From Escherichia coli 042 (GTDB taxonomy: Bacteria > Pseudomonadota > Gammaproteobacteria > Enterobacterales > Enterobacteriaceae), in NCBI RefSeq assembly GCF_000027125.1, contig NC_017626.1: a DNA stretch of 64,000 nt; one strand, given 5' to 3'. This document shows positions 6,718-10,546 of the stretch, piece by piece. Each line of letters begins with the position of its first letter. Positions within the stretch are counted from its first letter, which is position 1. The notes below the pieces were generated by a model. It was given only the letters and a program-made list of their open reading frames with translations. It ran no database searches and was not told where the DNA came from. The position numbers and the translations under genes were made by a program.

Positions 6718-7611
6718 ATGAATGGAAAATTGCAAAGTTCGGATGTAAAAAACGAAACTCCGTACAATATTCCCTTATTGATTAACGAAAATGTGATCTC
6801 CAGCGGAATTTCTCTGATCTCGCTCTGGCATACCTACGCCGACGAGCATTACCGGGTGATCTGGCCGCGGGACAAGAAGAAACCGCTTATCGCCAACTCA
6901 TGGGTTGCGGTGTATACCGTACAAGGATGTGGGAAAATTCTTTTAAAGAATGGCGAACAAATAACTCTGCATGGCAACTGTATTATATTTTTAAAGCCAA
7001 TGGATATTCACTCTTATCACTGTGAAGGTTTAGTCTGGGAACAGTACTGGATGGAATTTACCCCCACCAGTATGATGGATATTCCCGTCGGTCAGCAAAG
7101 CGTTATTTATAATGGCGAAATTTATAATCAGGAACTCACCGAAGTTGCTGAGTTAATTACTTCACCAGAAGAAATAAAAAATAATCTGGCAGTCGCTTTT
7201 CTGACGAAAATTATTTATCAGTGGATTTGTCTTATGTACGCAGACGGTAAAAAAGATCCACAACGGCGGCAAATTGAAAAACTAATTGCCACTTTACATG
7301 CCAGTCTGCAACAACGCTGGAGCGTAGCTGATATGGCTGCCACGATCCCCTGTAGCGAAGCCTGGTTGCGTCGTCTGTTTTTACGCTATACCGGCAAGAC
7401 GCCGAAAGAATATTACCTCGATGCACGTCTGGATCTGGCGCTATCGCTATTAAAGCAACAAGGGAACTCGGTTGGCGAAGTCGCTGATACGCTCAACTTC
7501 TTCGACTCCTTTCATTTCAGCAAAGCCTTTAAACATAAATTTGGTTATGCGCCGTCAGCTGTGCTGAAGAATACGGACCAGCACCCAACGGATGCCAGTC
7601 CACACAATTAA
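6718..7611 (+). CDS. yidL: AraC-family transcriptional regulator YidL
   Basis: ORF 6688..7611; start moved to the ATG at 6718 preceded by GGAGG; C-terminal AraC-type HTH region. Confidence 0.85.
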
Positions 7612-8930
7612 CGTAACTCTGGCCAGTACGCTTTGTTGGCCTCCAGCAACTCATCCAGAATAGCTTTGGCGACCGAGGCGCTCGGTACCGTTTTCGACAA
7701 CGTAATCGCCTGCCACAGGTGCTGATATGAACGCTGTTCCCAGGCGTCCACGACCAGTTTTTCCACCGCCACTTGCTGACTCATTAACCCTTTCTGAAAC
7801 TGCGGGATATCGCCGACCACCAGTGGTTCTGGTCCGTTGTGCCCGACCAGACACGGGATCTCGACCATCGCTTCATCATCAAAGTTATGGATTGCCCCGT
7901 TGTTAGGCACAATCAGCAACATCCGCTCCTGAGTGTTGAAGGCAATTGCCGCCGCCAGATCGACGATATATGACGCATGTTCGTCAATTTCCAGCTTGCC
8001 CGCCGCTGAATTTTCTGCCGCCGTAATGGCGCGGCAAGCATCGAAAACCTGTTTCTCGCGATGTTCCATCACCTCATTCGCGCGGGTATGTTCAGGGTTG
8101 GAATGCTGAACGACATAATCCGGGAAGAGATAATATTTCAGATAGGTGTTTGGTAATGTATCCGGGTCCAGTGCCTGGACATCCCGCGCTTTTGCATAGG
8201 TGTCGTTCCAGCTCGCTTCAGTATGTGTATCTTGCTGCGGTGGAACATAACCGTGCTTAGAGACATATTGCCGCAGCTGGGGCATCAGGTCGTTGCCCTG
8301 CAAATCTTCAATTGATGTCCACCAGCCAAAGTGGTTCAGGCCGTAGTAGCGCACGCGCATCTGTTTGCGATCTTGCAGCCCAACAATTTGCGCCATCCGG
8401 CTTTCAATACCGATTGGCATGTCACAGATGTTGAGGATTTTCGCATTCGGGCGCAGACGACGCGTGGCTTCTGCGACAATGGCTGCCGGGTTGGAGTAGT
8501 TGAGCATCCAGGCATTTGGTGAATATTTTTCCATATAATCCACCAGTTCCAGGACGCCGCCAATGGAACGCATGCCGTACGCTATTCCGCCGGGTCCGCA
8601 AGTTTCCTGTCCAACAACGCCGTGGCGCAGCGGGATTTTTTCATCCAGTTCGCGCATCGGGTATTTGCCGACGCGGATGTACGCCATGACAAAATCAACG
8701 TCGCTGAACGCCACTTCAGGATCGGTGGTGTAACTAAACGCAATGTCCGGCGCTTTCTCTTTAAGGATGACTTTACAGGCTTCAGCAATGACTTCCTGCC
8801 GCGCGCCATCGTTATCATAAAATTTCAGTGCACGAAGCGGGAAACGGTCCTGATTCGCCAGGAGCATCAACACGATGCCTGGCGTAAAGGTGCTTCCACC
8901 GCCTGCGACAACCACTGAGAATTTGGTCAT
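7608..8930 (-). CDS. glvA: 6-phospho-alpha-glucosidase, GH4 family, apparently intact
   Basis: 440-aa ORF with N-terminal Rossmann motif ([12 protein letters not shown]) typical of GH4 NAD/Mn-dependent glycosidases; 4-bp overlap with yidL end. Confidence 0.85.
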
Positions 8931-10546
8931 TATACTGCCTCCGTAATGGCAACATTTTCTGCTGATTGATGAGAATTAATTAAGCTATCGAGCTGTTCAC
9001 GCAGCTGGGATACATGCAGACCAATGATCACCTGAATGGCATCGCCACTACGGAAGACGCCGTGCGCTCCCAGCTTTTTAAAGACTTCGTCATCCAGCGT
9101 TTGTGACATGTCATGCAGTGCAATACGTAAACGCGTCGCGCAATTGTTAATGCTGGAGATATTGCCGACCCCGCCCAGGGCTTGCAGGATACCGGCAGCC
9201 TGATCCAGCTCTTTTTTTGGCTCTGCCGCGGTGGTTTGGCCTCGCGAGGCTTTGTATTCGGCTTTTGAGTAGAGTTTCACTTCCGCATCTTCACGTCCCG
9301 GTGTGCACATGTTGAATTGCAGAATCAGGGTGCGGAAAACCACGAAGTACAGCAGCGTAAAGCACAACCCAATGGCGATTTGGGTCAGCATCATATCCGC
9401 GTGGTTGCTGAACATCGGGATCCAGTTTTGCGGTAAAACCTGGTCAATCAAACCACCGCCCATGTTGCCCACCACACCAAAGAGGTACATCACGGTCGAC
9501 ATTGAGGCCGCCAGCACGGCGTGTACCGCAAACAGCAACGGTGAAATGAACAGGAAGGTAAATTCCAGCGGTTCGGTAATTCCCACCAGCATGGCGGTTA
9601 AGGTTGCAGGGATCAGCAAGCCCGCCACTTTTACCCGATTTTCCGGTGCGGCAGTGATGTACATCGCTAAAGAAATGCCCACGGCACCAAAGATTTTTGA
9701 GTTACCGTGCAGGGCAAAACCGCCTTCCGGGAACAACGATTTCAGCGGCTCGGCGCTCAAACTGAACTCTTGCAGATGCTGCGCCCAGTACATCTGAATG
9801 CCGCCTTCAACAGCTGCCGGACCAAAGATAAACGGTCCGTAGATGAAGTGGTGTAAACCGGTTGGGATCAGAATACGTTCGAGGAAGGTGTAAACCCACA
9901 CCCCAAGGGCACCCGCCGAACGCAGGAACGCTTGCAGAGATTCAATTCCCATTTGTACTTTTGGCCAGCCGAGCAAAGTCAGCCAGGCGCAGGGGATCAT
10001 CACCAGGAAGGCGATAATCACCACATAAGACGTCCCCTGGAAAATGCCGAGAAACACCGGCAGTTTTTTATCGAACAGGCGGTTATGCAGCGCCGTCACA
10101 ATGCCGGAAATGATAATCGCGCCGATAATGCTGGTATCGAGAGTTTTAATCCCCGCCATCATTGTCAGCCCGCTACCTGCCACCGCGTCCTGAGTGAAAT
10201 CGACGCCGAAGTAGCTTCCCCAGGTCATTCCCATCGCGTTGATGAAATAGTTCCAGGTCAGGAAACTCACCATCACCGCCAGACAAGCACGCCCCTGCGC
10301 TTGCTTCGCAAGGCCAATGGGTAAACCGACAGCAAAAATCAGCGGCATATTACGGAATACCGTCCAACCGCCCTCTTCAATAATGTGTACGATTTGCGCG
10401 AACAAACTGTTTGGATCGGTCAGTGATTCCCCGACAAACATCGGGTTTTGCAGCAAGATGGCAAGACCCACCACAATCCCGGCGAAGGGAAACAGCAGCA
10501 CTGGCGTGAACATCGCGCCGCCAAAGCGTTGAATTTGACTGAGCAT
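8930..10546 (-). CDS. glvC: PTS alpha-glucoside-specific EIICB component, apparently intact fused form
   Basis: ORF track gives 625 aa; the probable start is the internal ATG at 10546 ([16 protein letters not shown]...) preceded by AAGAGGA; 539 aa, polytopic EIIC with C-terminal EIIB. Confidence 0.82.

Follow-up and report, generated by a model that had tools for sequence, protein, structure and literature searches.

The closest described counterparts of the glv locus of Escherichia coli are the glv system of Bacillus subtilis and the agl system of Klebsiella pneumoniae; these counterparts, the undisrupted form of the locus and its lesions in strain K-12 are already known and established. B. 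subtilis carries a glvA-glvR-glvC operon with an RpiR-type activator. Its GlvA (MalA, 1U8X) and GlvC (MalP) follow the same PTS and GH4 logic as the locus described here. The phosphoryl donor of the Klebsiella AglA system is Crr (IIA-Glc), and the gene for the EIICB transporter AglA is followed by that for the GH4 hydrolase AglB (6DUX). The aglA and aglB genes are reported to confer isomaltose use on E. coli, and their K-12 homologues appear cryptic or truncated (PMC5309279).

The glv locus of the window (the whole 64,000-nucleotide stretch of DNA that was analysed) has the two-gene order of K. pneumoniae, EIICB transporter then GH4 hydrolase. It differs from the B. subtilis system in its glvC-glvA order and in its regulator, a divergent GntR/HutC protein. 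As in K-12, with which it shares ~98% nucleotide identity, the locus lies between yidL and yidP. Its three genes are:

7608–8930, minus strand: glvA (aglB homologue), full-length open reading frame of 440 amino acids, predicted GH4 NAD+/Mn2+-dependent 6-phospho-alpha-glucosidase
8930–10546, minus strand: glvC (fused glvC and glvB, aglA homologue), alpha-glucoside PTS EIICB of predicted specificity, 538 amino acids
10842–11558, plus strand: yidP, GntR/HutC-type regulator of 238 amino acids, divergent from glvC and adjoining it

Both open reading frames on the minus strand are full length and free of internal stops, as the initial annotation had described them, with glvA at 7608–8930 encoding 440 amino acids. 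The 539 codons of glvC include the stop, however, so its product has 538 amino acids rather than the 539 first assigned to it. The proposal that the starts are linked to plausible ribosome-binding sites also stands, with GGAGG located 7 nt 5' of the glvA ATG and AGAGGA 7 nt 5' of the glvC ATG. The longest open reading frame containing glvC extends from 8930 to 10807 (625 amino acids), and the ATG at 10546 is the start used by NCBI PGAP in the nearest genome, where the glvA coordinates also correspond to those of the window. The glvA ATG and the glvC TAA share one base (TAATG), and the two reading frames are translationally coupled. PGAP annotates the undisrupted locus as a 6-phospho-alpha-glucosidase plus a PTS transporter. 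The undisrupted loci of O157:H7 F8797 and strain T-HYM1 match the window in gene lengths and in this annotation.

GlvA has the N-terminal (Rossmann) domain of GH4 proteins at residues 6–184 (PF02056, E = 7e-66) and the C-terminal domain at residues 195–415 (PF11975, E = 3e-56). It shares 89% identity with 6DUX of K. pneumoniae (439 residues, 911 bits) and 73% with B. subtilis GlvA, 1U8X (437 residues, 750 bits). The dinucleotide-binding GXGS motif is present as GGGS (residues 10–13) and aligns with the same motif in both structures, as do Cys169, Asp170, His200 and Tyr263. The columns of these four residues are conserved in 76–77 of 80 diverse GH4 proteins, with Asp or Asn at position 170. In B. 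subtilis numbering the set is Cys171, Asp172, His202 and Tyr265, of which we take Cys and His to be the Mn2+ ligands and Asp and Tyr to be catalytic. These features place GlvA, as far as sequence can tell, in the GlvA/AglB/MalH subfamily of GH4 6-phospho-alpha-glucosidases, with a predicted NAD+/Mn2+-dependent hydrolysis.

GlvC scores 958.5 bits (cutoff 607.3) on TIGR02005, the model of alpha-glucoside EIICB transporters of the AglA type, with model positions 1–524 of 524 matching residues 2–523. Residues 378–538 match NF007255, the model of K-12 GlvB. The protein contains PTS_EIIC (E = 5e-71) and PTS_EIIB (E = 2e-12) domains, the EIIC sugar-site motif GITE (GITEPLEF) at residue 322, and a GLHH sequence that aligns with GLHH of PtsG (8QSR), the LHH motif with its two adjacent histidines. 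The phosphorylatable cysteine of EIIB is Cys469 in CATRLR, aligned to ACITRLR of PtsG. Together, the Pfam matches of both proteins and the TIGR02005 score indicate that glvA and glvC are real genes rather than chance reading frames, and the structural identity of the locus is firm. Domain searches and alignments show a whole catalytic region and an untruncated EIIB domain, so that neither of the two defects named at the outset as refuting an intact locus is present.

The K-12 lesions and the span missing from the locus-absent allele map to the window as follows:

7830–8337, minus strand: glvA segment deleted in K-12, 508 bp, frameshifting, present in the window
9440–9442, minus strand: glvC codon 369, CAG (Gln) in the window and TAG (amber) in K-12
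7579–11508, no strand assigned: span missing in the locus-absent allele, comprising the yidL 3' end, glvA, glvC and most of yidP

The 8-bp direct repeat GAACCACT lies at both edges of the 508-bp segment. K-12 glvG is thus glvA with a frameshifting deletion, and K-12 glvC and glvB are a single EIICB gene split by an amber codon at Gln369; the initial annotation's picture of a disrupted K-12 locus was essentially right. K-12 also has the substitutions Pro238Gln and Ile297Phe, which, like the two lesions, the window does not have.

We surveyed these alleles in 5,426 complete E. coli genomes. The deletion is carried by ~2,624 of them, the whole locus is missing from ~1,150, and the 508-bp segment is kept in ~1,652. 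Since ~30% of complete genomes keep an undeleted glvA, the undisrupted state is ordinary, and on this point the initial interpretation fails. Of 4,274 locus-carrying genomes, 3,727 match the window exactly over the 45 bp around glvC codon 369. Several stages of decay can be recognized: both genes undisrupted (O157:H7), glvA deleted with glvC whole (55989), both lesions (K-12), and loss of the entire locus apart from a remnant of yidP (E41-1). In strain E41-1, ~49 bp stand in place of 7579–11508 and the final ~50 bp of yidP are retained, a remnant indicating that absence of the locus is a secondary deletion. The glv locus has been lost repeatedly across E. coli, and its decay or loss in much of the species marks it as dispensable there.

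The nearest allele differs from that of the window by 19 changes, 18 of them synonymous, and dN/dS among alleles is 0.0–0.15, indicating that the glv genes were under selection until recently. Set against this strong purifying selection, the decay series is a small, tidy example of the ongoing loss of a sugar pathway, and the undisrupted allele itself matters little beyond its correct annotation. A foreign origin of the locus is unsupported, because the GC content across glvA and glvC (0.50–0.54) is like that of the flanks and the position of the locus in the chromosome is constant among the E. coli examined.

On balance, we lean toward reading the locus as an ancestral yidP-glvC-glvA allele with intact reading frames, the counterpart of K. 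pneumoniae aglA-aglB, that most likely stays silent in standard laboratory culture. The course of transport, hydrolysis, regulation and silence that we infer would be as follows. GlvC, an EIICB of the glucose PTS family, would couple the uptake of an alpha-glucoside to its phosphorylation at O-6 via Cys469. Domain and family model searches detected no EIIA domain in GlvC or GlvA, and the phosphoryl group would come from a IIA protein encoded elsewhere, the role that Crr has in Klebsiella. The next step would fall to GlvA, which would split the 6-phospho-alpha-glucoside into glucose-6-phosphate and the aglycone by the NAD+/Mn2+ oxidation-elimination chemistry of GH4 enzymes. YidP, the presumed repressor of the glvC-glvA operon, probably acts on the divergent promoter. 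Silence may arise because the operon is not induced or because GlvA is weakened by the substitution His84Tyr. A silent operon would explain why an undisrupted pair of reading frames gives no demonstrable alpha-glucoside phenotype. Against this reading, strong purifying selection suggests that undisrupted alleles are useful in nature, in which case silence may only reflect tests with the wrong inducer or condition.

Phenotypic data are consistent with a silent operon. In a Biolog comparison with MG1655, strain 042 did better only on 2-deoxyribose, GalNAc, L-sorbose, L-proline and GlcNAc (PMC2808357, Table S3), and alpha-glucosides were listed in neither direction (PMC2808357). The PM1/PM2A carbon panel contains palatinose, turanose, maltitol and alpha-methyl-glucoside beside the carbon sources scored as different. 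The tables are limited to wells passing the authors' criterion for a difference, and they may therefore conceal a weak signal. A literature search on glv and alpha-glucoside phenotypes in natural E. coli returned nothing specific. In contrast to K. pneumoniae, strain 042, the presumed carrier of the same GlvA protein, has no reported alpha-glucoside phenotype.

The GlvA of the window departs from its relatives at one position:

8679–8681, minus strand: glvA codon 84, TAC (Tyr), with C to T at 8681

Codon 84 is CAC (His) in other E. coli alleles, in K. pneumoniae and in B. subtilis. The histidine is present in 118 of 120 close homologues (74–92% identity), and Tyr occurs at this site in none of 200 homologues. 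Across its 440 residues, GlvA breaks with a column of at least 95% conservation only at Tyr84. It lies two residues N-terminal of the invariant Arg86 in the IRVG motif, and GlvA therefore lacks the subfamily-conserved His of the (M)AHIRVGKY motif, including when compared with K. pneumoniae AglB. Judging from these alignments, His84 would be a conserved feature of the subfamily rather than a proven defining one. The GlvA proteins of T-HYM1 and O157:H7 both keep His84, unlike that of the window; His84Tyr is the only difference from the former, and residues 43, 84, 217 and 306 differ in the latter. No complete RefSeq E. coli genome, among which ~4,276 carry the locus, has an exact match to 8600–8760. 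The exact Tyr84 protein is on record from at least 85 contigs, including accession CBG36863.1, which, from the CBG accession series, is presumably from enteroaggregative strain 042. Loci from other assemblies are 100% and 99.97% identical to the window over 7.3 kb, and these loci, with the identical protein and its accession series, make strain 042 a probable source of the window. The variant is restricted to one lineage.

This substitution raises the possibility, to which we give considerably less credence than to silence, that the locus is an incipient pseudogene: His84Tyr would have crippled or inactivated GlvA, leaving reading frames that look whole in a dead pathway and opening a fourth independent loss. 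The singular departure of Tyr84 from the conserved columns near Arg86, its absence from 200 homologues and its confinement to one lineage argue for such a start of decay, as do the demonstrable dispensability of the locus in the species and the lack of a phenotype in strain 042. An active transporter coupled to a dead hydrolase could, in that case, be harmful through the accumulation of sugar phosphate. However, no known metal ligand or catalytic residue lies at site 84, and the wider GH4 family has Q, T, A, S or H at this position, a variability suggesting that the enzyme may tolerate Tyr84. Replacing His84 by Tyr84 lowers the HMM score by just 3 bits, too little to decide the matter, and PMC10628242, searched for a structural role of His84, mentions GlvA but not residue 84. 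Also against inactivation are the spread of the allele over those 85 or more contigs and the intactness of two Tyr84-allele loci, which have no further lesions. If classical identification tables, in which E. coli is negative for alpha-methyl-glucoside and palatinose, are right, silent His84 alleles elsewhere in E. coli would explain the missing phenotype without a defect in GlvA.

We consider it somewhat less probable still, and on the whole unlikely, that the operon works in full and can be induced, with His84Tyr neutral and with sucrose isomers, isomaltose, maltitol and similar alpha-glucosides taken up and hydrolysed as by K. pneumoniae AglA and AglB. All the defining motifs of GlvA and GlvC are present, GlvA is close to the K. 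pneumoniae enzyme (89%) and dN/dS is very low. Furthermore, the YidP protein is the same as in K-12, and the glvC allele, whose product is identical to T-HYM1 GlvC, is widespread (more than 1,000 contigs). Yet strain 042 gained on no alpha-glucoside over MG1655, a histidine conserved in 98% of close homologues is replaced, and E. coli is negative in the identification tables although ~30% of genomes have an undeleted glvA. The capacity to use alpha-glucosides that the initial annotation had predicted is therefore not borne out; given the substitution of a conserved His and the absence of alpha-glucoside use in the phenotype data, a lack of stop codons should not be taken to mean that the locus is functional. 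We regard as improbable the further reading that undisrupted alleles, preserved by strong purifying selection in ~30% of genomes and lost on at least three separate occasions in the others, serve a natural substrate or niche outside standard tests, with His84Tyr perhaps altering specificity or cofactor handling in the 042-like lineage.

Control of a silent but ancestral operon would fall to the region upstream of glvC:

10547–10841, no strand assigned: glvC–yidP divergent intergenic control region, containing a palindrome and a weak CRP-like site
10692–10725, no strand assigned: 34-bp imperfect palindrome AGAGATCTACGTTTTCG/CGAAAAAGTAGACATCT, candidate YidP operator

The neighboring regulator is as first described: YidP combines an N-terminal GntR winged helix-turn-helix (PF00392, E = 7e-21) with a C-terminal UTRA domain (PF07702, E = 1e-30), and its sequence is identical to that of K-12. 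A simple scan of the intergenic region found no sigma-70 consensus promoter, and a promoter and terminator scan of 10400–11000 gave no match and was uninformative. We make no claim for the weak CRP-like site at 10725–10740 (2 mismatches), because 22 such sites occur across the 64 kb and a CRP ChIP-seq table for strain 042 has no peak at glvC or yidP. The missing promoter match and CRP peak would fit a silent operon. The half-site motif AGATCTAC, related to the palindrome, has 43 matches in the window against 28 expected, an unconvincing enrichment that leaves the palindrome at 10692–10725 as a candidate operator.

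The glv locus of E. coli 042 encodes undisrupted forms of GlvA, a GH4 6-phospho-alpha-glucosidase, and GlvC, an alpha-glucoside PTS EIICB. The operon is best read as maintained by selection and silent in the laboratory, with an additional lineage-specific substitution of uncertain effect. Genes in this E. coli region are ordered yidK-yidL-glvA-glvC-yidP-yidE-ibpB in the window, where the locus has the following features:

7608-8930, minus strand: glvA, ORF of 440 aa
8930-10807, minus strand: longest ORF containing glvC
10546, minus strand: ATG chosen as the glvC start, which is the PGAP start in the nearest complete genome (product of 538 aa)
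10842-11558, plus strand: yidP, with GntR and UTRA domains

The initial annotation described glvA and glvC as intact ORFs of 440 and 539 aa. Both are indeed full length, with a GlvC product of 538 aa. Alignment to the alpha-glucoside EIICB model TIGR02005 begins at residue 2 of this product, and putative ribosome-binding motifs lie 7 nt upstream of the glvC (AGAGGA) and glvA (GGAGG) starts. The glvC stop and glvA start codons share one base (TAATG), an arrangement typical of translational coupling. The stop codons of the convergent glvA and yidL genes overlap by 4 bp (window 7608-7611), so that no terminator fits in between and transcripts of the glv operon would continue antisense into yidL.

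We searched both ORFs for a missing catalytic region or a truncated EIIB domain, the defects that the initial annotation had named as counter-evidence, and found neither. In a domain search, the two GH4 domains of GlvA were both complete; the protein is 89% identical to the 6-phospho-alpha-glucosidase of K. pneumoniae (structure 6DUX) and 73% identical to B. subtilis GlvA (1U8X). It retains GGGS at residues 10-13 and the set Cys169, Asp170, His200 and Tyr263, which correspond to Cys171, Asp172, His202 and Tyr265 of the B. subtilis enzyme. GlvC scores 958 bits on TIGR02005 (cutoff, 607) and covers all 524 model positions. Furthermore, it has GITE at residue 322, both adjacent histidines of the PtsG LHH motif and the phosphorylatable Cys469 within CATRLR. 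An EIIA domain is absent from both GlvA and GlvC.

Alignment of the window to K-12 BW2952 bore out the proposal that the K-12 locus is disrupted, unlike that of the window. K-12 glvA has lost 508 bp (window 7830-8337), which shifts the frame. The 8-bp repeat GAACCACT at both edges of this segment suggests that the deletion arose by slippage or microhomology. In glvC, codon 369 is changed from CAG to TAG (window 9440-9442), yielding a GlvC of 368 aa and a GlvB of 161 aa; the NCBIfam model of the latter aligns with residues 378-538 of the window's GlvC. K-12 also carries the changes Pro238Gln and Ile297Phe, and its YidP protein is identical to that of the window.

Among 5,426 complete RefSeq E. 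coli genomes, the locus is present in 4,276 (5' part of glvA) and glvA is undeleted in 1,652 (508-bp segment), leaving by subtraction about 2,624 with the K-12-type deletion and about 1,150 lacking the whole locus. The 45 bp around codon 369 are identical to the window in 3,727 of 4,274 genomes, which confines the amber codon to at most 547. O157:H7 (glvA and glvC undisrupted), 55989 (glvA deleted, glvC whole) and K-12 (lesions in both) form a series. In strain E41-1, about 49 bp stand in place of window 7579-11508 and a yidP remnant of about 50 bp stays, so absence of the locus there is a secondary deletion. Together, the series, this deletion and the genome counts indicate that the undisrupted allele is ancestral, common and already annotated. 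The observation and its K-12 comparison are correct, but the undisrupted state is ordinary and already known. We also noted that the neighboring sulfatase gene yidJ is annotated in E41-1 as two overlapping CDSs (1946-3440), which suggests further decay around the glv site. In LR134246.1, a 1-bp indel splits yidK (5380-7094; window 4836-6551) into ORFs of 250 and 321 aa, probably an assembly error of that record; yidK is whole in the window (571 aa).

Synonymous changes account for 18 of the 19 differences in glvA and glvC between the window and strain T-HYM1, which has the nearest allele. Pairs of alleles give dN/dS values of 0.05-0.15 in glvA and 0.0-0.1 in glvC. These substitution patterns show purifying selection on both genes through most of E. 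coli history, with recent lesions. The sole non-synonymous difference is GlvA His84Tyr (CAC to TAC, window 8681). Histidine occupies this site in the K-12 remnant, K. pneumoniae, B. subtilis and 118 of 120 cluster representatives (74-92% identity; Enterobacterales, Aeromonas, Clostridium and Leptotrichia), and site 84 is the only one of 440 GlvA positions that departs from a column conserved in at least 95% of them. A set of 80 diverse GH4 proteins shows Q, T, A, S or H at this position but never Y; the invariant Arg86 follows two residues later. No complete RefSeq E. coli genome matches window 8600-8760 exactly. Yet the exact Tyr84 protein is recorded from 85 contigs, including CBG36863.1 (presumably the protein of EAEC strain 042), and over 7.3 kb the window is 100% identical to one other assembly and 99.97% identical to another. 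These records show that His84Tyr is no sequencing error but a genuine variant that has become fixed in one lineage. Because identity to the best match among the 5,426 genomes is no higher than 98.4% across 24 kb and 99.4% across the glv region, this lineage appears to be missing from that set.

In the 042 genome paper (PMC2808357), 042 and MG1655 were compared on Biolog plates. Strain 042 made better use of 2-deoxy-D-ribose, GalNAc, L-sorbose, L-proline and GlcNAc (Table S3 of that paper), and no alpha-glucoside is listed among these or among the carbon sources of the reverse table. The PM1/PM2A carbon panel holds palatinose, turanose, maltitol and alpha-methyl-D-glucoside, along with 2-deoxyribose, GalNAc and L-sorbose. 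Hence, compared with K-12 and its broken locus, no gain is detectable in a strain with this exact GlvA, and the alpha-glucoside use predicted from the intact locus is unsupported by the available data. Identification tables generally list E. coli as negative for alpha-methyl-glucoside and palatinose, which would suggest operon silence rather than His84Tyr alone. Incipient inactivation through His84Tyr, with which the conservation of the site is consistent, is a less likely explanation. Full function of the operon agrees with its complete domains but not with the Biolog comparison and is unlikely.

Between glvC and yidP, no consensus promoter turned up in a simple scan, and the 042 CRP ChIP-seq table has a peak at yidE (EC042_4041) and none at glvC/yidP. 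This intergenic region contains a 34-bp imperfect palindrome (AGAGATCTACGTTTTCG/CGAAAAAGTAGACATCT, window 10692-10725) abutting a CRP-like site with 2 mismatches (TGTGAGCACTGGTACA, window 10725-10740). These could be a candidate operator and activator site, neither being statistically convincing.

Elsewhere, window 20000-44000 matches a median of 17 and up to 40 places per E. coli genome and therefore holds a repeated element, for instance an IS or a REP-type sequence. In the same stretch, near gyrB, dnaA and tnaA, there is a ShET2/EspL2-family type III effector gene that fits EspL3' (Ec042-4064) of the 042 effector table. A perfect CRP consensus (TGTGATTCGATTCACA, window 37758-37773) precedes the tnaC leader peptide (MNILHICVTSKWFNIDNKIVDHRP, window 37849-37923), followed by tnaA (38129-39559) and tnaB, as expected for the control region of the tna operon.
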